NCBI RefSeq assembly: GCF_003334335.1
Contig: NZ_QOWQ01000036.1
From: Escherichia coli
GTDB taxonomy: Bacteria; Pseudomonadota; Gammaproteobacteria; Enterobacterales; Enterobacteriaceae
DNA length: 45,604 nt
Direction: 5' to 3' (one strand)
The stretch's first letter is position 1, and each line of letters begins with the position of its first letter. The position numbers and the translations under genes are program-made. The notes beneath the pieces are model-generated. The model was given only the letters and a program-made list of their open reading frames with translations. It made no database searches and had not been told where the DNA came from. Of the stretch, positions 1 to 40,190 are shown in pieces.

Positions 1-71
1 GGTGATGACGGGATCGAACCGCCGACCCCCTCCTTGTAAGGGAGGTGCTCTCCCAGCTGAGCTAATCACCC
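1..71 (-). tRNA. valZ: tRNA-Val (anticodon UAC), 3' end cut by window edge
   Basis: Reverse complement matches the tRNA-Val(UAC) gene; anticodon loop CTTACAA visible; last 5 nt incl. CCA lie outside the window. Gene name from position in cluster (memory). Confidence 0.85.
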
Positions 72-220
72 GATACTGCGCTGGATACTACAAACTACTT
101 CCACCGAACCCACCGTCATTAGTGGTGGGTCGTGCAGGATGACTCGCTTCGCTCGCCCTACGGGCCGTTGCTGACGCAACGTTATCCTACACGCTTAACA
201 TCTGTCTTCGATGTTAAAAC

Positions 221-296
221 TGGTGGGTCGTGCAGGATTCGAACCTGCGACCAATTGATTAAAAGTCAACTGCTCTACCAACTGAGCTAACGACCC
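221..296 (-). tRNA. lysW: tRNA-Lys (anticodon UUU)
   Basis: 76-nt reverse-complement match to tRNA-Lys(UUU) with encoded CCA; anticodon loop CTTTTAA. Confidence 0.9.
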
Positions 297-300
297 GAAG

Positions 301-376
301 TGGTGGGTGATGACGGGATCGAACCGCCGACCCCCTCCTTGTAAGGGAGGTGCTCTCCCAGCTGAGCTAATCACCC
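301..376 (-). tRNA. valT: tRNA-Val (anticodon UAC)
   Basis: 76-nt reverse-complement match to tRNA-Val(UAC), identical to the copy at 1-71. Confidence 0.9.
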
Positions 377-511
377 GATACTACGCTGGATACTACAACT
401 AACTATGTTAGTGGTGGGTCGTGCAGGATGACTCGACTTCGTCTCGCCCTTCGGGCCGTTGCTCATGCAACGTTATCCTTCACGTTTTACTACCGCTTCC
501 ACCTTAGCGAT

Positions 512-587
512 TGGTGGGTCGTGCAGGATTCGAACCTGCGACCAATTGATTAAAAGTCAACTGCTCTACCAACTGAGCTAACGACCC
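512..587 (-). tRNA. lysT: tRNA-Lys (anticodon UUU)
   Basis: 76-nt sequence identical to the copy at 221-296; first tRNA after cpoB. Confidence 0.9.
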
Positions 588-751: not shown

Positions 752-1543
752 TTACATCGCGTTCAGACGTTTTTGTGCCTGTTTAGCGCCATCAGTACCA
801 GGGTATTTACTGATAACCTGCTGGTATACGGCTTTCGCTTTTGCGGTGTCACCTTTGTCCTGCATGATGACGCCGACTTTAAACATCGCATCTGCAGCCT
901 TTGGTGACTTCGGATAGTTTTTCACTACCGAAGCAAAATAGTACGCCGCATCATCTTTTTTACCCTTGTTGTAGTTTAACTGACCCAGCCAATAATTGGC
1001 GTTTGGCAGGTAAGTTGAATCAGGGTAATTTTTGATGAAATTCTGAAATGCCACCATTGCGTCATCCTGGCGGGATTTATCCTGCACCAGCGCAATAGCT
1101 GCATTGTAATCCGTGTTTGCATTACCGCTTTTCACCGGCGCGCCAGCATTCGCAGTACCAGCATCAGCTGTCGGCGTCGTTGATGCCGCCGCACCGCTTT
1201 GATCGCCGCTGGTTGATTGCGCCGCTGCACCACCGCTGCTGAGGCTGTCGATCTGCAACAGGATCTGCTTTTGCCGCTCCACGACCTGATTCAGTTGATA
1301 CTGATTTTCCTGAATCTGACCACGCAGGGAATCAATATCGGATTGATTATCAGAAAGTTGTTGCTGGAGTTGGGTTAAAAGCTGGCTGTGAGCATTAGAA
1401 ATACGCTCAAGTTGAGTGACGCGGTCTTCGACCGAGCCTGAGCCGACACTACTGATTGGTGCCTGAGCAAAAGCGGCCCAGGGGGCCGCTATACCAACCA
1501 GTAACGACAGACTCAATAGTTGATGTCTGAAGTTACTGCTCAT
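752..1543 (-). CDS. cpoB: Cell division coordinator CpoB (YbgF), TPR protein
   Basis: 263-aa ORF with signal peptide, coiled-coil and TPR-like C-terminus; 9 nt downstream of pal. Confidence 0.93.
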   Translation of the reverse strand: MSSNFRHQLLSLSLLVGIAAPWAAFAQAPISSVGSGSVEDRVTQLERISNAHSQLLTQLQQQLSDNQSDIDSLRGQIQENQYQLNQVVERQKQILLQIDSLSSGGAAAQSTSGDQSGAAASTTPTADAGTANAGAPVKSGNANTDYNAAIALVQDKSRQDDAMVAFQNFIKNYPDSTYLPNANYWLGQLNYNKGKKDDAAYYFASVVKNYPKSPKAADAMFKVGVIMQDKGDTAKAKAVYQQVISKYPGTDGAKQAQKRLNAM

Positions 1544-1552
1544 GCAATTCTC

Positions 1553-2098
<546 letters not shown>

Positions 2099-2108
2099 TT
2101 AATTATTA

Positions 2109-3401
2109 TCACAGATACGGCGACCAGGCAGGGAATTTGACCTGTCCATCAGTTGCCGGAAGACGCGCTTTGAAACGCCCATCTGTAGAAACCAAATTCA
2201 GCACGGATCCCATCCCCTGAGAAGAGCTGTAGATTACCATAGTGCCGTTAGGTGCCAGACTTGGCGTTTCATCCAGGAACGTGGACGACAGAACTTGTAC
2301 GCCTCCCGTTGCCAGATCTTGTTTGGCAATGTGCTGCTGCCCACCATTGGAGCTGACCATTACCATAAATTTACCGTCGCTGCTGACATCCGCATCCTGG
2401 TTCTGCGAACCTTCCCAGGTAATACGTTGTGGCGCACCGCCGTTGATATTCACTTTATAAACCTGCGGACGACCGGCCTGGTCAGAAGTAAATGCCAGGT
2501 TCTGGCTATCCGGGAACCAGGTCGGTTCGGTATTGTTACTGCGACCATCAGTCACCTGGCGGATCTGACCAGAAGCCAAATCCATTACGTACAGGTTCAG
2601 ACTACCGGTTTTCGACAAGGCGAATGCCAGTTTGCTGCCGTCTGGCGAGAATGCAGGTGCACCGTTGTGACGCGGGAATGAAGCCACCTGACGTACAGCG
2701 CCATTTGCCAGCGTCTGAATAACCAGCGCGGAACGACCGCTTTCGAAGGTCACATAAGCCAGTTTAGAACCGTCTGGTGACCACGCCGGAGACATCAGCG
2801 GCTGCGGTGAACGGTGAACGACAAACTGGTTGTAACCGTCATAGTCAGATACGCGCAGTTCATACGGGAACTGACCGCCGTTGGTCTGAACAACGTAGGC
2901 AATACGAGTACGGAACGCACCTTTAATGCCGGTCAGTTTTTCAAACACTTCATCACTGGCGGTATGACCAGCATAACGCAGCCACTGCTTGTTCACTTTG
3001 TACGAGTTCTGAGCAAGTACAGTACCCGGTGCGCCGCCAGTGTCAACAAGTTGATAAGCAACATTGTAAGAACCATCCGGATTCGGAGTGACCTGACCGA
3101 CAACTACAGCGTCAATGCCCAGTGCGGACCATGCAGCTGGTTGTACTTCCTGCGCACTACCCGGCTGCTGTGGCAGACGAGCGCGATCTAACGGATTAAA
3201 TTTACCGCTGTTACGCAAGTCAGCAGCAACGATGCCGCCAATATCTTCAGGTGCCGCACCAGGCCCCGCCCACTGGAAAGGAACAACACCAATAGGACGA
3301 CCGGAATCTACACCGCTGTCGATCACAATGCGGACTTCAGCATGCAGAACTGATGCCCACAGTATGAGAAAACCAAATGCTACTCGTAATGCCTGCTTCA
3401 T
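2109..3401 (-). CDS. tolB: Tol-Pal system beta-propeller protein TolB
   Basis: ORF begins MMKQALRV...; second Met taken as start (430 aa); signal peptide plus WD-like repeats. Confidence 0.95.
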
Positions 3402-3533
3402 CATATCTCCCTTATCTGGACCGATGGCCCACGATAATTTAGCAGAATGTTAACAAACTAAAATACACAAAACTACCAGAACCCCGTGGCAACCGGTGCC
3501 TGATGTTGACCGTCCGAACAGTCAACATCGCGA

Positions 3534-15265: not shown

Positions 15266-15988
15266 ATGGGACACAAGCCCTTATACCGGCAGATTGCCGA
15301 TCGCATTCGTGAACAAATTGCGCGTGGCGAGCTTAAACCTGGCGATGCGTTACCCACTGAATCAGCGCTACAAACAGAGTTTGGCGTCAGCCGGGTTACG
15401 GTGCGTCAGGCTTTGCGCCAGCTAGTCGAGCAGCAGATCCTCGAAAGCATTCAGGGCAGCGGGACTTACGTCAAAGAAGAGCGGGTCAATTACGATATTT
15501 TTCAGTTAACCAGTTTTGATGAAAAACTGTCGGACCGTCACGTCGATACACACAGTGAAGTTCTGATATTCGAAGTGATTCCGGCTGACGATTTTCTTCA
15601 GCAACAGCTACAAATCACCCCGCAGGATCGTGTGTGGCATGTGAAGCGCGTGCGCTATCGCAAGCAAAAGCCAATGGCGCTGGAAGAAACCTGGATGCCG
15701 CTTGCGTTGTTCCCGGATCTCACCTGGCAGGTCATGGAAAATTCGAAATATCACTTTATCGAAGAAGTGAAGAAAATGGTTATCGATCGTAGCGAACAGG
15801 AAATCATTCCTCTGATGCCAACCGAAGAGATGAGCCGTCTGCTTAATATCAGCCAGACAAAGCCGATTCTTGAAAAAGTATCGCGTGGATATTTAGTTGA
15901 TGGTCGGGTGTTTGAATATAGCCGCAACGCTTTTAATACCGATGACTATAAATTTACCCTGATAGCGCAGCGAAAATCATCGCGATAA
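15266..15988 (+). CDS. mngR: GntR/HutC-family transcriptional regulator MngR (FarR)
   Basis: 240 aa; N-terminal GntR-type wHTH (VSRVTVRQAL), UTRA-type C-domain. Confidence 0.92.
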   Translation: MGHKPLYRQIADRIREQIARGELKPGDALPTESALQTEFGVSRVTVRQALRQLVEQQILESIQGSGTYVKEERVNYDIFQLTSFDEKLSDRHVDTHSEVLIFEVIPADDFLQQQLQITPQDRVWHVKRVRYRKQKPMALEETWMPLALFPDLTWQVMENSKYHFIEEVKKMVIDRSEQEIIPLMPTEEMSRLLNISQTKPILEKVSRGYLVDGRVFEYSRNAFNTDDYKFTLIAQRKSSR

Positions 15989-15990
15989 GC

Positions 15991-16016
15991 ACAAAAAAGG
16001 CCATCATACGATGGCC
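15991..16016 (-). terminator. Intrinsic terminator ending the sucABCD transcript (shared palindrome downstream of mngR)
   Basis: Stem ggccatc/gatggcc (15999-16016), loop atac, followed on the minus strand by a U6 tract (plus-strand aaaaaa 15993-15998). Confidence 0.8.
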
Positions 16017-16091
16017 AACCATGTCGAAACCGACAGCCCTTCGCCATTCCTGTAGAGGGAAGCGGCGAGGGCTATTTCTTATTACAGATAT
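15993..16091 (-). ncRNA. sdhX: sucD 3'UTR-derived sRNA (SdhX/RybD-type)
   Basis: ~100-nt 3'UTR between sucD stop and a strong terminator; a 3'UTR sRNA is known at this position in enterobacteria. Exact 5' end not determinable from sequence. Confidence 0.55.
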
Positions 16092-16961
16092 TTATTTCAG
16101 AACAGTTTTCAGTGCTTCACCGATATCCGCCAGGCTGCGAACGGTTTTCACGCCTGCGGCTTCCAGAGCAGCGAATTTCTCATCCGCAGTCCCTTTCCCA
16201 CCGGCAATGATGGCACCCGCGTGGCCCATACGTTTGCCTTTCGGCGCAGTCACACCAGCGATGTAACCCACAACTGGCTTGGTAACGTGCTCTTTGATGT
16301 ACGCAGCTGCTTCTTCTTCAGCGCTACCGCCGATCTCACCGATCATCACGATCGCTTCGGTCTGCGGATCTTTTTCGAACATTTCGAGAATGTCGATAAA
16401 GTTAGAGCCCGGGATCGGGTCACCGCCGATACCGACACAGGTCGACTGACCGAAACCGTAATCCGTGGTCTGTTTAACCGCTTCATAGGTCAGTGTACCG
16501 GAACGGGAAACGATACCCACTTTACCCGGTTTGTGAATGTGACCAGGCTGGATACCGATTTTGCATTCACCCGGAGTGATAACGCCTGGGCAGTTCGGGC
16601 CGATCATACGAACGCCTGCTTCATCCAGCTTCACTTTCACGGTCAGCATATCCAGCGTCGGGATGCCTTCAGTGATGGTGATAATCAGTTTGATGCCTGC
16701 GTCGATGGCTTCCAGAATGGAGTCTTTGCAGAACGGTGCTGGTACGTAGATAACAGAAGCGGTAGCGCCAGTGGCAGCAACGGCTTCACGCACGGTGTTG
16801 AACACCGGCAGGCCGAGGTGGGTGGTGCCGCCTTTACCTGGGGTTACGCCGCCAACCATTTTAGTGCCGTATGCAATGGCCTGTTCTGAGTGGAAAGTCC
16901 CCTGGCTACCGGTAAAGCCCTGGCAGATAACCTTGGTGTTTTTATCGATTAAAATGGACAT
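16092..16961 (-). CDS. sucD: Succinyl-CoA synthetase alpha subunit
   Basis: 289 aa; CoA-binding and catalytic-His region recognisable. Confidence 0.96.
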
Positions 16962-18127
16962 TATTTCCCCTCCACTGCGGCAACAACCTGCTGAGCTGCA
17001 TCCGTCAGACCTTTTGCTGCAATAATATTCAGGCCGCTGTCAGCCAGTTTCTTCGCGCCGAGTTCGGCGTTGTTACCTTCCAGACGTACCACGACCGGTA
17101 CGTTAACACCCACTTCTGCTACCGCGCCGATGATACCGTCAGCGATCAGGTCGCAACGAACGATACCGCCGAAGATGTTAACCAGAACGGCTTTCACTTT
17201 GTCGTCAGAGAGGATGATTTTGAACGCTTCGGTTACACGTTCTTTGGTTGCGCCGCCGCCAACGTCAAGGAAGTTAGCCGGTTCGCCGCCGTGCAGTTTA
17301 ACGATGTCCATCGTACCCATCGCCAGACCTGCGCCGTTAACCATACAACCGATGTTACCGTCCAGCGCAACGTAGTTCAGTTCCCACTGTGCAGCCTGTG
17401 CTTCACGCGGATCTTCCTGCGACTGGTCACGCATTTCGCGCAGATCAGGCTGGCGGAACAGTGCGTTGCCGTCAGCGCCCAGTTTGCCGTCGAGGCAAAT
17501 CAGATCGCCCTGTTTGGTGATGACCAGCGGGTTGATTTCGATCAACGCCAGGTCGCGCTCCAGGAAAATGGTCGCCAGGCCCATGAAGATTTTGGTGAAC
17601 TGCTGAACCAGTTTACCTTCCAGACCCAGTTTGAACGCCAGCTCGCGTCCCTGATACGGCATCGGGCCAGTCAGCGGATCAAGCGCAACTTTATGGATCA
17701 GGTGCGGAGTTTCTTCCGCCACTTTTTCGATTTCCACGCCGCCTTCGGTGGAGGCCATAAAGACCACACGACGGGAACTACGGTCAACAACGGCACCGAG
17801 ATACAGCTCTTTAGCGATATCGGTCGCTGCTTCAACCAGAATCTGGTTAACCGGTTGGCCATTGGCATCTGTTTGATACGTTACCAGACGCTTGCCCAGC
17901 CAGTTTTCTGCAAAAGCACGGATGTCTTCTTTGCTGTTTACAACTTTCACACCGCCCGCTTTACCGCGGCCACCAGCGTGAACCTGACATTTCACTACCC
18001 ACGGACCGGCACCGATTTTTGAAGCGGCTTCTTCTGCTTCGCGCGGAGTAGTACAGGCATAACCCACCGGTGCTGGTAAGCCATAGCGGGCAAAAAGTTG
18101 TTTTGCCTGATATTCATGTAAGTTCAT
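16961..18127 (-). CDS. sucC: Succinyl-CoA synthetase beta subunit
   Basis: 388 aa, ATP-grasp family; stop overlaps sucD start by 1 nt. Confidence 0.96.
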
Positions 18128-18210
18128 GTGTTCTGTCCATCCTTCAGTAATCGTTATCTTTTAAACCGTAGACCGAATATTTCGTATCGCTTCCGGGCAT
18201 TGTCGGTCAC

Positions 18211-18380
18211 CCGTAGGCCTGATAAGACACGTTAACCGTCACATCAGGCATCGCTTGTCGGATGCGGCGCTAGCGCCTTATCCGACCTACATTGGTGGTC
18301 CCGTAGGCCTGATAAGACGCGTCAGCGTCGCATCAGGCTTCAATTGCCGGAGAAGGCGATAATGCCTTATCCGGTCTACA
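18211..18380. repeat. REP/BIME cluster in the sucB-sucC intergenic region
   Basis: Several inverted copies of the gcctgatgcgacgc / gccttatccggcctac REP motif. Confidence 0.8.
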
Positions 18381-18401
18381 GTGCAGGTGAAACTTAAACT
18401 A

Positions 18402-19619
18402 CTACACGTCCAGCAGCAGACGCGTCGGATCTTCCAGCAACTCTTTGATCGTTACCAGGAAGCCCACGGATTCGCGACCATCGATCAGACGGTGATCGTA
18501 GGACAGCGCCAGGTACATCATCGGCAGGATCTCAACCTGACCATTCACCGCCATCGGACGATCTTTGATAGCGTGCATACCCAGAATTGCGCTCTGCGGC
18601 GGGTTGATGATCGGCGTAGACATCAGGGAACCGAACACACCACCGTTGGTGATGGTGAAGTTACCACCGGTCAGATCTTCAACGGTCAGCTTGCCGTCAC
18701 GGCCTTTGACTGCCAGCTCTTTGATTTTCTTCTCGATGTCTGCCATGCCGAGGGTATCGACATCACGCAGAACCGGCGTCACCAGGCCGCGCGGCGTAGA
18801 AACCGCCATGCTGACGTCGAAATAGTTGTGGTAAACCACGTCATCGCCGTCGATAGAAGCGTTCACTTCCGGGTAACGTTTCAGGGCTTCAACCACCGCT
18901 TTCACGTAGAAGGACATAAAGCCCAGACGGATGCCGTGGCGTTTTTCAAACGCTTCACCGTACTGCTTACGCAGATCCATAATCGGCTTCATGTTGACTT
19001 CGTTGAACGTGGTCAGCATGGCGGTGGAGTTTTTCGCTTCCAGCAGACGCTCTGCCACACGCTTACGCAGGCGAGTCATCGGGACACGTTTTTCACTACG
19101 TGCAGCCAGAGCCGGTTGCGCCGCCGGAGCAGCCGCTGCCGGAGCAGACTCTTTCGCCGGGGCTTTCGCCAGATGTTTTTCCACATCTTCACGAGTCAGA
19201 CGACCACCCACACCGGTGCCTTTAATGGCGCTGGCGTCGAGATTGTGTTCAGCCAGCAGGCGACGGATCGCCGGGCTTAACGCATCGTTGTTTTGCTCTT
19301 CCAGAGACGCCTGCTGGCGTTGCGCCGGAGTGGACGCTTTCTCTTCAGATTTGGCGCTGGTTTCTTTACCGGCGCTGTTGCCTTCACGCAGGCGACCAAG
19401 GATCTGACGAGACGTTACCGTTGTACCTTCATCTTCCAGAACCGCATCCAGAATGCCGTCTGCTGATGCCGGTACTTCCAGTACCACTTTGTCAGTTTCG
19501 ATTTCTACCAGCACTTCATCACGTACGACTGCGTCGCCGGGTTTTTTATGCCAGGTTGCGACGGTGGCATCGGCTACGGATTCAGGCAGGTCAGGGACCA
19601 GAATATCTACGCTACTCAT
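18402..19619 (-). CDS. sucB: Dihydrolipoyllysine succinyltransferase (2-oxoglutarate dehydrogenase E2)
   Basis: 405 aa; lipoyl domain, Ala/Pro-rich linker, catalytic domain. Confidence 0.96.
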
Positions 19620-19633
19620 TGTGTATCCTTTAT

Positions 19634-22435
19634 TTATTCGACGTTCAGCGCGTCATTAACCAGATCTTGTTGCTGTTTCTGGTGAACGGACATATACCCT
19701 ACCGCCGGAGAGGCGGAGGCCGGGCGGCCTGCATAACGCAGAGAAGCCCCAAACGGAATCACTTCACGGAAATGATGCTGGCTGCAGTACCATGCGCCCT
19801 GGTTGAGCGGCTCTTCCTGGCACCAGACAAAATCCTTGACGTGAGCAAACTGCTGCAACACTTCCTGCATCGCTTTATGCGGGAACGGGTAGAGTTGCTC
19901 GATACGCACAATGGCGACATCGTGTTGATTGTTCTTACGACGCTGTTCCAGCAGGTCGTAATAAACCTTACCAGAACACATCACTACGCGCTTCACGCCC
20001 TTCGGATCAAGCTCGTCGATTTCACCGATGGCTGGCAGGAAGGTGCCGTTCGCCAGTTCTTCGAGGCTGGAAACCGCCAGCGGATGACGCAGCAGGGATT
20101 TCGGCGACATCACGACCAGCGGACGACGCATCCCGCGCAGCGCCTGACGACGCAGCATGTGGTAAACCTGTGCCGGGGTAGACGGTACGCAAACCTGCAT
20201 GTTTTGCTCAGCACAAAGTTGCAGATAACGTTCCAGACGCGCGGAGGAGTGCTCCGGCCCCTGCCCTTCGTAACCGTGCGGCAGCAACATCACCAGACCA
20301 CACATCCGGCCCCATTTCTGTTCGCCAGAGGAGATGAACTGGTCGATAACCACCTGCGCACCGTTGGCGAAGTCACCGAACTGCGCTTCCCAGATGGTCA
20401 GAGTGCGTGGTTCTGCGGTGGCATAACCATATTCAAACGCCAGCACTGCTTCTTCAGACAGTACGGAGTCCCAGACACGGAACGCGCCCTGCCCGTTATG
20501 GATATGTTGCAGCGGCGTGTAAGTGGAACCGTTAGACTGGTTGTGGATCACCGCGTGGCGGTGGAAGAAGGTACCGCGACCGGAGTCTTCACCCGACAGG
20601 CGAACCGGAATGCCTTCATCAACCAGCGTGGCGTAAGCGAGGTTTTCCGCACCGCCCCAGTCGAACAGTTTCTCACCGGCAGCCATCGCCTGGCGATCGC
20701 CATAAATCTTGGCAACGCGAGACTGCATTTCAACTGCTTCCGGCACCGTGCTGATGCGTTTCGCCAGCTCCTGCAGGCGCTTCATCTCAACTTTGTTCGG
20801 GTACTCTTCGTCCCATTCGTGGTTGAGGTACGGCGACCAGGTGAAAGAGTGCATGTTCATCGGACGCCACTCTGCCACTACGCAATCGCCAGCATCCAGC
20901 GCATCGCGGTACAGGTTAACCATCTCGGTGGCATCTTCCAGCGTCGCCACTTTTTCCTGCTCCAGCTTGTCAGCGTAGATTTTGCGCGGTGTCGGATGTT
21001 TTTTGATTTTCTGATACATCAGCGGCTGGGTTGCGCTCGGCTCGTCGGCTTCGTTGTGGCCGTGACGGCGGTAGCACACCAGGTCGATGAAGACATCACG
21101 TTTAAAGGTGTTACGGAAATCGAGCGCCAGACGGGTCACAAAGGCAACGGCTTCCGGATCGTCCGCGTTAACGTGGAAAATCGGGGCCTGAACCATCTTA
21201 CCGATATCAGTACAGTACGGCGTAGAACGGGCATCCAGCGGATTAGAGGTGGTGAAACCAACCTGGTTGTTGATAACGATACGTACCGTACCGCCAACTT
21301 CATAACCACGCGCTTTCGACATGTTCAGGGTTTCCTGAACCACGCCCTGCCCGGTCACTGCGGCGTCACCGTGGATGGTGATTGGCAGCACTTTGTTGCT
21401 GCTCGGCTCATCAAGTCTGTCCAGACGGGCACGAACAGAACCGATAACTACCGGGCTTACAATCTCAAGGTGAGACGGGTTAAACGCCAGCGCCAGGTGC
21501 ACCAGGCCGCCATCGGTCTGGAAGTCAGACGAGAAGCCCATGTGGTATTTCACGTCACCCGTGCCGAGGTGTTCTTTATGTTTACCGGCGAACTCGTCGA
21601 ACAAGTCTTGCGGTTTTTTACCCAGCACGTTCACCAGCACGTTCAGACGACCACGGTGCGCCATCCCGAGAACCACTTCGCGGGTGCCGCTGTTGCCAGC
21701 GTGGCGGATCATCTCTTTAAGCATCGGGATTAACGCGTCACCGCCTTCCAGCGAGAAGCGTTTTGCGCCAGGGAATTTTGCGCCGAGGTAACGTTCAAGA
21801 CCTTCAGCGGCGGTCAGTTCGCTTAAGAAGCGTTTTTTCTCTTCGCTATTGAAAGTCGCGCGACCAGACTCGATACGCTGTTGGATCCAGCGTTTTTCTT
21901 CGGTGCTGGTAATGTGCATATACTCGGCACCAATCGGGCCGCAGTAGGTTTGCTTGAGGGCTTCCAGCAGCTCGCCGAGTTTCATGGTTTCTTTGCCGCT
22001 GGCAAATGAACCGACGTTGAAGGTCTCCTGGAAGTCTGCTTCGGTCAGATCGTGGAAAGACGGATCCAGATCGGCCACTTTATCTTGCTGCCACAGTCCC
22101 AGCGGATCGAGATTCGCATGCTGGTGACCACGGAAGCGGTATGCGTTAATGAGCTGCAGGACTTTAACCTGCTTCACATTGGTGTCAGGGTCGGAGATCG
22201 TTGAAGAGTAACGTGAAGCGTCTTTCGCCAGGCGGCGGAAATATTCACGCGTTTGAGAGTGGAATTGATCCGGTTTGACTCCCGTACCAGGTAACTGCTG
22301 GAACGTCGAACGCCAGTTAGCGTCAACCGAGTCAGGATCGGTTAAGAAGTCTTCATAGAGCTGTTCTATCCAGCTCTGGTTTGCGCCAGAGAGGTAAGAA
22401 GAGTCCAACCAGGCTTTCAAAGCGCTGTTCTGCAT
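19634..22435 (-). CDS. sucA: 2-oxoglutarate dehydrogenase E1 component
   Basis: 933-aa ThDP-dependent E1. Confidence 0.96.
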
Positions 22436-22613
22436 CGTGATCCCTTAAGCATCTTTTTTATGCTTACTTCGCCGTGGATACTACCACGCACAGTGATGTG
22501 CGTGCCGGGGTTCACTTGCGAGCTCTTGTCTACGTAGTGGCTCGCGAAGGAACCTTTAAAAACTGTCTTAGTGTCAGGGGCAGTTTTTAAAGATTTCCTG
22601 CATTTCTTTGTTA

Positions 22614-22733
22614 CGCCTGATGCGCTGCGCTTATCAGGCCTACGGGTAATGACTTGTAGGCCGGATAAGGCGTTCACGCCGCATCCGGCACTGGTTGCCT
22701 GATGCGACGCTTGCGCGTCTTATCAGGCCTACG
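22614..22733. repeat. REP cluster between sdhB and sucA
   Basis: Three REP-consensus copies in alternating orientation ending 2 nt before the sdhB stop. Confidence 0.8.
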
Positions 22734-22735
22734 GT

Positions 22736-23452
22736 TTACGCATTACGTTGCAACAACATCGACTTGATATGGCCGATGGCGCGCGTCGGGTTCAGCCCCT
22801 TCGGACATACACTGACGCAGTTCATGATGCTGTGACAGCGGAATACGCTGAATGCATCACTCAAACCGTCGAGGCGGCTGTCAGTCTCGGTATCACGGCT
22901 ATCAATCAGGAAACGATATGCCGCTAACAAGCCTGCCGGGCCGATAAACTTATCGGGATTCCACCAGAAAGACGGACAAGAGGTTGAACAACATGCGCAG
23001 AGAATACATTCATACAGCCCGTCGAGTTTTTCGCGCTGCTCTGGCATCTGTAAATGCTCGCGAGCTGGCGGATTTTGTCCATTATTCAACAGGTAAGGCT
23101 TAATTTTCTCATATTGCGCATAGAATTGTCCCATGTCTACCACCAAATCGCGGATCACCGGTAAACCTGGCAGCGGGCGAATCACAATCTTCTTGCCCGG
23201 CTGGTTGAGTGCCGAAATCGGGGTAATACAGGCCAGACCATTCTTGCCGTTCATGTTCAGACCGTCGGAACCGCACACACCTTCACGGCAGGAGCGGCGG
23301 AACGACAGGCTGGGATCTTTCTCTTTTAGCTGGATAAGCGCATCCAGCAGCATCATGTCGCGACCTTCATCCGCTTCCAGGGTGTAATCCTGCATACGCG
23401 GAGCATCATCAACATCCGGGTTATAGCGATAAATTGAAAACTCGAGTCTCAT
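22736..23452 (-). CDS. sdhB: Succinate dehydrogenase iron-sulfur subunit
   Basis: 238 aa with Cys clusters for 2Fe-2S/4Fe-4S/3Fe-4S centres. Confidence 0.96.
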   Translation of the reverse strand: MRLEFSIYRYNPDVDDAPRMQDYTLEADEGRDMMLLDALIQLKEKDPSLSFRRSCREGVCGSDGLNMNGKNGLACITPISALNQPGKKIVIRPLPGLPVIRDLVVDMGQFYAQYEKIKPYLLNNGQNPPAREHLQMPEQREKLDGLYECILCACCSTSCPSFWWNPDKFIGPAGLLAAYRFLIDSRDTETDSRLDGLSDAFSVFRCHSIMNCVSVCPKGLNPTRAIGHIKSMLLQRNA

Positions 23453-23467
23453 TTTCCTGTCTCCGCA

Positions 23468-25234
23468 TTAGTAAGTACGAATCTTCGGCGGGAATGCCGG
23501 GCGCAGTTTCGGTTCCATGTTGACGCTTCGGCGCGTCATGGATTCCGACTCTGGCAGATACAGGGAGTGGCACAGCCAGTTTTCATCATCACGATCCGGG
23601 AAGTCGAAGCGGCTATGCGCGCCACGGCTTTCGGTACGGAAGTTGGCAGAAACAGCCGTTGCATACGCCGTTTCCATCAGGTTATCCAGTTCCAGGCACT
23701 CAACGCGCTGGGTGTTGAACTCGCTGGAAGTGTCATCCAGACGGGCATTTTTCAGACGCTCGCGGATCACTTTCAACTGCTCAAGCCCTTTCGCCATCGC
23801 ATCACCTTCACGGAAGACCGAGAAGTTATGCTGCATACATTCTTGCAGCGCTTTACGGATCGCCACCGGATCTTCACCGTTACGATTATTGTTCCAGCGG
23901 TTCAGGCGATCCAGAGACGCTTCAACATCAGACTCGCTGGCATCGCGCAGTGCGCCCTGCTCGGCGATAGACTCTTGCAGATGCAGACCTGCCGCGCGAC
24001 CAAAGACCACCAGGTCCAGCAGCGAGTTGCCGCCCAGACGGTTAGCGCCGTGTACCGATACACAAGCGATTTCACCAACGGCAAACAGTCCCGGAACAAC
24101 CACATCTTCGCCTTTCTCATTCACAGTCAGCGCCTGACCGGTAACTTTGGTCGGAATACCGCCCATCATGTAGTGACAGGTTGGGATAACCGGAATCGGC
24201 TCTTTCACCGGATCGACGTGAGCGAAGGTACGGGAAAGCTCCAGGATACCCGGCAGACGGGATTCGAGAACTTCTTTACCCAGGTGATCGAGTTTCAGTT
24301 TCGCGTGTGGCCCCCACGGACCATCACAGCCGCGACCTTCACGGATTTCGATCATGATGGAACGCGCAACCACGTCACGGCCCGCCAGGTCTTTGGCGTT
24401 CGGCGCATAACGCTCCATAAAACGTTCGCCATGTTTGTTCAGCAGATAACCGCCTTCACCACGGCAACCTTCGGTGACCAGTACGCCCGCACCGGCAATG
24501 CCGGTCGGGTGGAACTGCCACATTTCCATATCCTGCACCGGTACGCCGGCACGGATAGCCATGCCGACACCGTCGCCGGTGTTAATGTGGGCGTTGGTGG
24601 TGGACTGATAAATACGCCCTGCTCCGCCAGTCGCCAGCACGGTAGCGCGGGCTTTGAAATAAACCACTTCACCGGTTTCGATGCACAGTGCGGTACAACC
24701 CACCACCGCGCCATCCTGGTTTTTCACCAGATCCAGCGCATACCACTCGGAGAAAATGGTGGTGTGGTTTTTCAGGTTCTGCTGATAAAGCGTGTGCAAC
24801 AGTGCGTGACCGGTACGGTCAGCTGCTGCCGCAGTGCGTGCCGCCTGCTCGCCGCCGAAGTTTTTCGACTGACCGCCAAACGGACGTTGATAGATACGAC
24901 CATCATCGAGACGCGAGAACGGCAGGCCCATGTGTTCGAGTTCCAGAATCGCTTCCGGCCCGGTTTTACACATATATTCAATCGCGTCCTGGTCACCGAT
25001 ATAGTCCGACCCTTTCACGGTGTCGTACATATGCCATTCCCAGTTATCTTCATGGGTATTACCCAGCGCAACGGTAATGCCGCCTTGCGCAGAAACGGTA
25101 TGGGAACGGGTCGGGAAGACTTTAGAGAGCAGCGCACAGGTCTGGCCGCTCTGGGAAATTTGCAGCGCCGCGCGCATACCTGCGCCACCGGCACCAATCA
25201 CAACTGCATCAAATTCTCTGACTGGCAATTTCAT
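23468..25234 (-). CDS. sdhA: Succinate dehydrogenase flavoprotein subunit
   Basis: ORF begins [23 protein letters not shown]; start placed at MKLPV (588 aa); FAD-binding GxGxxG. Confidence 0.95.
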
Positions 25235-25581
25235 CACACACCCCACACCACAACGAATCCATAAATCACGTAAACCACCAGTGCAACGACAATCACCAGT
25301 TGCAGCATCAGGCGCAAAGCCAGCGGTTTAACGTAGTCGGTCAACACCTGCCACATGCCGATCCAGGCATGGATCAAGATAGAAAACAGCGCCAGCAGGG
25401 TGAACACTTTGGTGAACGCAGAGGCGAAGAAACCGATCCAGACTTCATATGTCAGCTCGCCACTGGTAGCGAAAAAACCGACCATATAAATGATGTAGAG
25501 CGTCAGGACGATAGCGGTAGCGCGAACGAGGATGAAATCATGTACGCCATTGCGTCCTAATGCGGAGGCGTTGCTTACCAT
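25234..25581 (-). CDS. sdhD: Succinate dehydrogenase membrane anchor subunit
   Basis: 115-aa hydrophobic protein, overlaps sdhA start. Confidence 0.95.
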
Positions 25582-25964
25582 ACGAGGACTCCTGCGAGAA
25601 GTGAAAGCACGACAGTAATAACAAAGGAGATTTTGGCGGAGCGTTTACCCGCTTCGAATGTTTCTTCCAGATAGCCAAAATCCATCATCATGTGGCGAAT
25701 ACCTACGACGACGTGATACGCCAGAGCGGTAAGGATGCCCCACATGATAAATTTGACGAAGAAGCTGCCCATAATCGCGGAAGCTTGCTCGAAACCTTCA
25801 GGGGAAGAGAGGCTGGTACCCAGAAGCCACAGCAGGATGCCCACTGCAACAAAGGTGATCACACCGGAAACGCGATGGAGAATGGACGCTATCGCCGTGA
25901 TGGGGAACCGGATGGTCTGTAGGTCCAGATTAACAGGTCTTTGTTTTTTCACATTTCTTATCAT
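25575..25964 (-). CDS. sdhC: Succinate dehydrogenase cytochrome b556 subunit
   Basis: ORF track gives 134 aa; start placed at [11 protein letters not shown] (129 aa). Confidence 0.93.
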
Positions 25965-40080: not shown

Positions 40081-40190
40081 TGCCTGATGCGACGCTTGAC
40101 GCGTCTTATCAGGCCTACGTATTTCCTGCAATTTATTGAATTTGCACAAATTTGTAGGCTGGATAAGGCGTTCACGCCGCATCCGGCATC
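40081..40190. repeat. REP pair between dtpD and phr
   Basis: Two inverted REP-consensus copies (gcctgatgcgacgc... / ...gccgcatccggc). Confidence 0.8.

Follow-up and report, generated by a model that had tools for sequence, protein, structure and literature searches.

The spacer between sucD and the convergent gene mngR of Escherichia coli holds a single hairpin between the two stop codons, which raises the question of whether the segment transcribed beyond sucD is a regulatory RNA, the plain end of an operon mRNA, or a terminator kept for both genes. In the 45,604-nucleotide stretch of E. coli DNA analyzed here (the window), the sucD ORF occupies 16092..16961 on the minus strand, with its TAA stop at 16092-16094, and ends the sdhCDAB-sucABCD operon, the parent transcript of the segment (16092..25964, minus strand, as delimited by the K-12 annotation and 99.98% identity). 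On the plus strand, the mngR coding sequence extends over 15266..15988 and its TAA at 15986-15988 lies 10 nt (GCACAAAAAA) from the palindrome. An earlier note, made from the sequence alone, had proposed an SdhX-type small RNA in the sucD 3'UTR and a palindrome shared with mngR.

Comparison with E. coli K-12 MG1655 settled the identity of the segment. Window positions 15991-16091 (minus strand) correspond base for base to 765050-765150 of NC_000913.3, annotated there between sucD and the convergent mngR as the ncRNA sdhX (b4764, "small regulatory RNA SdhX"). All 171 of 171 aligned columns around b4764 are identical; over the surrounding 19 kb, K-12 753000-772000 aligns with the window in inverted orientation at 99.98% identity (the window coordinate being 28142 minus the locus coordinate in that K-12 slice). 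The operon order is collinear with that of K-12 and the element (16091..15991) lies directly downstream of the sucD stop codon. We consider it practically certain that the flagged 101 bases are SdhX (formerly RybD), the processed 3' end of the TCA-cycle operon mRNA. The RNA that the earlier note had described by its type is thus SdhX itself, with 100% identity at the same coordinates and the published seed and pairings; it is already characterized and annotated in K-12 and is not new. Sequence, place after sucD, seed and terminator all match those of b4764, as do the target complementarities, the only offset being an in vivo 3' end mapped by Term-seq at 765148, 2 nt inside the annotated end at 765150. 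As far as a sequence can tell, every defining feature of SdhX is present, and no observation spoke against this identification. The RNA is reportedly the subject of an E. coli study by De Mets et al. published in PNAS in 2019.

Rfam 15 contains no SdhX family, and accordingly none came out of a gathering scan of the whole window or a permissive scan of 15850-16250. The only matches to this region were a resemblance to isrD limited to the terminator (17 bits, E = 0.6) and one to snoR9, discarded as noise. The region matching SdhX carries no annotated feature in any of the 30 RefSeq genome records listed; K-12 MG1655 does annotate sdhX. Recognition of this element from raw sequence indicates that unaided reading can spot 3'UTR-derived small RNAs and adds no new biology.

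The 101-nt RNA (15991..16091, minus strand), which is the full-length form of SdhX, folds at -41.3 kcal/mol with a z-score of -4.7 relative to shuffled sequences, and its anatomy could be delineated from the folds. An A/U-rich leader (SdhX nt 1-18, 16091-16074) is followed by the imperfect 5' stem-loop of the long form (nt 19-57, 16073-16035), which is found in both MFE and centroid folds, constitutes the species-variable part of the 3'UTR and contains the E. coli-specific katG-pairing stretch CCCUCUACAG (nt 33-42, 16050..16059). A small hairpin, GUCG-GUUU-CGAC (nt 58-69, 16034-16023), comes next and, according to the predicted fold, may make the seed of the long form partly inaccessible. The seed UUCGACAUGGU (nt 64-74, 16018..16028) matches the published one and stands directly 5' of the terminator hairpin GGCCATC-GTAT-GATGGCC (nt 76-93, 15999..16016), which was recovered by the terminator scan, the folds and covariation and consists of 7 pairs, 5 of them G-C, closed by a loop of 4 nt. 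A U6 tract (nt 94-99, 15993..15998) completes the terminator with U-tail that forms the Hfq-binding module. The minimal 38-nt form, equivalent to Salmonella SdhX2 and made of seed and terminator, would correspond to the conserved core at 15993..16030, a position carried over from Salmonella. The hairpin and U6 previously read on the minus strand are thus present at 16016-15999 and 15998-15993, respectively. The distance of about 100 nt given between the sucD stop and the hairpin holds for the whole 3'UTR, which measures 99 nt up to the last U; the foot of the hairpin itself is 75 nt from the stop codon.

A generic terminator scan did not by itself exceed chance, with 1 site found and 1.6 expected from shuffled sequences. 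Across genera, the terminator stem covaries: 99.2% of the cells are paired and four of the seven pairs have changes on both sides, a level reached by none of 500 shuffles, and slid controls drop to 22-61% paired. Published Term-seq data covering three growth conditions in the curated table (Adams et al. 2021, PMC7815308, Supplementary file 1) place a strong 3' end at K-12 765148(+), corresponding to window position 15993, where the U-tract ends. Three entries exist for this position, the two shown having 19,842 and 34,704 average reads, and its sequence context ends with GATGGCCTTTTTT|GTGC. From the fold z-score of -4.7, the covariation of the stem, the conserved core and the Term-seq end, we conclude that the terminator is real.

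In order to evaluate conservation, the sequence past the sucD stop was extracted from one genome per species with SucD, which gave 80 loci in all, within the Enterobacterales and elsewhere in the Gammaproteobacteria. A core with the composition (U)UUCGACAUGGUUGGCC-stem-GGCCU6 (UUUCGACAUGGUUGGCC-stem-U6) does not vary among ten genera of Enterobacteriaceae, namely Escherichia (E. coli and E. albertii), Mangrovibacter, Phytobacter, Pseudescherichia, Pluralibacter, Superficieibacter, Kluyvera, Enterobacter, Citrobacter and Cedecea. The stretch between stop codon and core is hypervariable, differing in both sequence and length among these ten genera, and 3'UTR lengths among all loci bearing the core span 44 to about 190 nt. 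The 5' stem-loop sequence is not conserved between genera, many of which still have some hairpin right after the sucD stop. The alignment shows the seed UUCGACAUGGU to be invariant in Enterobacteriaceae. The region immediately 5' of the terminator, whose alignment the earlier note had recommended, is thus strongly conserved across the genera of this family. In Serratia, Rahnella, Hafnia and Yersinia nurmii the UCGACAU portion is kept and the 3' side is changed; a plain terminator alone is found in Pantoea, Erwinia, Rosenbergiella, Proteus, Morganella, Photorhabdus, Xenorhabdus and Arsenophonus and outside the Enterobacterales. Unusually long sucD 3'UTRs of about 170-190 nt occur in Serratia silvae (locus 2374-2543) and Yersinia nurmii (locus 2374-2559), where structured or repeat-like inserts precede the diverged SdhX core (UCGACAUGUUUGGCC and UCGACAUAUAUUGGCC).

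A covariance model of 42 positions (R1) built from the conserved core gave full-length matches exclusively in the invariant-core genera and in the Serratia, Rahnella, Hafnia and Yersinia groups, the matches elsewhere being partial and confined to the terminator. True cores scored 40-62 bits as against 33 bits or less for plain terminators. Over the 45.6-kb window, the sole significant match, which was also the sole full-length one, was found at 15993-16034 on the minus strand (60.6 bits).

The seed UUCGACAUGGU was named the conserved SdhX seed by Miyakoshi et al. 2019 (PMC6393394), who reported that SdhX represses the translation of ackA by pairing across its start codon, and that E. coli SdhX also represses fdoG, for which G62 is required, and katG, for which C34 in the variable 5' part is required. 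Pairings were computed between the window sequence and K-12 ackA, fdoG and katG, using the longest exact complementarity and seed-restricted duplexes. SdhX nt 65-73 (UCGACAUGG) can form 9 bp with ackA at -2..+7 (CCAUGUCGA), nt 62-71 (GUUUCGACAU) can form 10 bp with fdoG at -22..-13 (AUGUCGAAAC), and nt 33-42, the 5' stretch described above, can form 10 bp with katG at -20..-11 (CUGUAGAGGG). The window sequence reproduces all three published pairings at the published mutated positions: G62 faces fdoG C-13, the published compensatory pair, and the katG stretch contains C34, the published compensatory-mutation position. Seed-restricted duplexes were better than those with most shuffled targets, the ackA duplex being equalled by 9 of 300 shuffles and that of fdoG by 15 of 300, while the support for katG is its 10-nt run in the 5' region alone, scored without a shuffle control. 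Unrestricted RNAduplex predictions between the 101-nt RNA and the -60..+30 regions of ackA, fdoG and katG yielded long spurious duplexes with energies no better than those of shuffled targets. Hfq-CLASH experiments in E. coli have recovered SdhX-ackA and SdhX-katG chimeras.

These observations bear on an alternative that reduces the region to the 3'UTR and intrinsic terminator of the sdh-suc operon, lacking any role in trans, and regards any RNA fragment derived from it as a decay intermediate. Such a reading accommodates a terminator that is real and strong, as well as the published finding that removal of the entire 3'UTR lowers SucD protein, which reveals a role in cis as well (PMC6393394). 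It does not account for the invariance across genera of an 11-nt single-stranded stretch 5' of the terminator amid hypervariable flanks, nor for the exact complementarity of the seed to the ackA start region, and it was already refuted by the compensatory mutations published for SdhX seed and target pairs (PMC6393394). We therefore give it next to no credence and retain the identification of the segment as a trans-acting SdhX.

For processing by RNase E, dependence on Hfq, repression of the targets and position of the 3' end, we rely on the literature, in which they are documented. SdhX was first detected as the Hfq-bound RNA RybD (PMC6393394; 2022 review), and its association with Hfq has been recorded by co-IP, CLIP, RIL-seq and CLASH, so that the stable RNA that the earlier note had expected from this 3'UTR is documented as an Hfq-bound species. 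It has no promoter of its own and is freed by RNase E from the operon mRNA of about 10 kb as a long and a 38-nt form; the dependence on RNase E was established with rne-ts and R169K mutants of Salmonella, in which the functional 38-nt form and the UUU processing site were also demonstrated (PMC6393394). The UUU that was mutated in Salmonella to block processing is present here at SdhX nt 63-65. Cleavage at GG/UUU would produce a 37-38-nt species (16030..15993) and, in addition, unfold the small hairpin that partly covers the seed, the exact E. coli processing site being presumed from that of Salmonella.

An independently transcribed small RNA gene with its own promoter inside sucD, in the manner of MicL, would offer another origin for the same RNA, and the levels of SucD and SdhX are indeed not congruent (PMC6393394). 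Our search of the distal part of sucD returned one weak promoter-like site (16537..16510, minus strand, 9 of 12 matches), which is located more than 400 nt upstream, and promoter-like sites in this region were not above chance (2 versus 1.7 in shuffles). Furthermore, no transcription start site or conserved promoter was found for SdhX and both RNA species vanish in an RNase E ts mutant (PMC6393394). We judge an autonomous promoter to be extremely improbable and favor release of SdhX from the operon mRNA.

The resulting scheme combines the published mechanism with the elements mapped here. SdhX is made as the terminal ~100 nt of the sdhCDAB-sucABCD mRNA, and its synthesis consequently follows the TCA-cycle operon promoter. 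Transcription stops at the hairpin and U6 intrinsic terminator, after which RNase E would free the ~101-nt and ~38-nt species and Hfq would bind the terminator and U-tail. The single-stranded seed would then pair with the ackA start-codon region (CC-AUG-UCG-A) and block acetate kinase translation, leaving pta unaffected. In E. coli, the seed extended by G62 would repress fdoG, and the species-specific stretch CCCUCUACAG in the 5' stem-loop would repress katG. The locus is a classic example of a regulatory RNA borne at the 3' end of an operon mRNA, linking the expression of TCA-cycle enzymes to acetate kinase, hence to acetyl-phosphate and overflow metabolism, with a reach that in E. coli also includes formate dehydrogenase O and catalase.

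Salmonella SdhX1 (87 nt) and SdhX2 (38 nt) have the seed UUCGACAUGGU, the terminator and the ackA target in common with E. coli SdhX, as well as the UUU just 5' of the seed at which RNase E processes the Salmonella RNA. They differ in carrying a U where E. coli has the G62 that enables fdoG repression, and in their 5' region, which is unlike that of E. coli, the one that pairs with katG. CpxQ, SroC, NarS, GlnZ and MalH belong to the same class of RNase E-released RNAs with a seed directly upstream of the parental intrinsic terminator, and like SdhX they are Hfq-bound and devoid of a dedicated promoter (2022 review), whereas their parent operons, seeds and targets are unlike those of SdhX.

We then considered the other side of the palindrome. 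The earlier note had stated that the same palindrome lies 10 nt past the mngR stop and lacks a U-tract on that strand, and the sequence agrees: the plus strand continues past the palindrome as AACCATGTCG, with AACCAUGUCG after the hairpin. One palindrome between convergent stop codons is also the arrangement of the bidirectional terminators that Ju et al. (2019) and Wang et al. (2022 bioRxiv) described for pairs of convergent genes; here, in contrast to those pairs, the U-tract is on one side only and a 3' end is documented on the sucD strand only. The palindrome could accordingly be viewed as chiefly a bidirectional terminator kept for sucD and mngR, with mngR aided by head-on polymerase collisions. 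In favor of this view are its location between the two stops, at 10 nt from that of mngR, and the collision termination at hairpins, dependent on these hairpins, reported between convergent E. coli genes (Wang et al. 2022 bioRxiv), a mechanism that could help mngR here.

The neighborhood of SdhX in other E. coli genomes argues otherwise. A 301-nt query across the region matched all 5426 complete E. coli genomes; SdhX is present in every one and essentially complete in 5425. Homology runs on into mngR in 3883 of the 5426, and in the other 1543 (about 28%), in which mngR is not the neighbor, it ends at query positions 208-215, a few nt past the U-tract (window 15986-15993). The SdhX terminator is thus the edge of a variable region in E. 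coli. Replacement neighbors include a LysR-family gene (in O157:H7, with cobO/fumarate hydratase), a TPR protein gene and a convergent gene of the RtcB family with an annotated end that overlaps the U-tract, and the hairpin and U6 are unchanged beside all of them. The core is also kept in other genera with a different sequence downstream of the terminator. Since hairpin and U6 persist without mngR as neighbor and in other genera, we conclude that the palindrome is maintained for sucD/SdhX and that mngR only borrows it. Together with the missing U-tract on the mngR side and the absence of any mngR-sense 3' end from the curated Term-seq table, which for the interval 765060 to 765159 holds no further 3' end on either strand (PMC7815308), this makes a palindrome kept chiefly for both genes very unlikely. 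It is to be noted that the mngR-sense end may be unlisted simply as a result of weak mngR expression.

The single genome among the 5426 with an interrupted SdhX is that of E. coli FDAARGOS_944 (NZ_CP065613.1, locus ~2683-3452), in which an IS1 lies inside the seed at the equivalent of window 16019-16027. It is flanked by a 9-bp target duplication (TCGACATGG), so that one copy of the seed remains on the sucD side and the other, with the terminator, lies beyond IS1.

The asymmetric termination that had been predicted at the common palindrome is plausible: it fits an intrinsic model that needs a U-tract, the lack of one on the mngR side and the presence of a Term-seq end on the sucD strand alone. 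Transcription from mngR is expected to terminate poorly at the U-less side. A search of the literature returned no report on how mngR transcription ends or on bidirectional termination at sucD/mngR, and the SdhX paper mentions neither mngR nor convergent transcription (PMC6393394). On the sucD strand, DirectRNA-seq with and without bicyclomycin identified a bicyclomycin-sensitive region peaking at 765604(+), i.e. window 15537 on the minus strand, antisense inside mngR and ~450 nt past the 3' end of SdhX, with a Rho score of 2.86 and p = 2e-5 (Rho table of PMC7815308). Some read-through past the SdhX terminator could thus be halted by Rho, which is only suggestive given scoring windows of 800 nt.

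The SdhX 5' stem-loop (16035-16073) has a complement on the plus strand that itself forms a strong hairpin, followed by UAUUUCUUAUUA (16035-16085 in all); it was unreported by the simple terminator scan and its stem is interrupted by internal loops. We speculate that this predicted hairpin may serve mngR read-through transcripts as a back-up terminator. Should mngR transcription read through to it, the mngR 3'UTR would be a perfect full-length antisense of SdhX, and expression of mngR (mannosylglycerate regulon) could titrate or destroy SdhX, and the reverse. Such an interaction is a long shot; if true, it would constitute a cis-antisense tie between a sugar regulon and TCA/acetate control, which is not described in the literature consulted.

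Rfam matches elsewhere in the window comprise a tRNA/RtT cluster (1-587, minus strand), the CpoB/ybgF RNA thermometer (1514-1652, minus strand, 142 bits) and the ES036/CssrF small RNA (40111-40153, minus strand, 75 bits). Two matches to the REP-type family naRNA4 fall, by K-12 mapping, in the sucB-sucC spacer (18216-18287, minus strand) and in the sdhB-sucA spacer (22659-22729, plus strand).
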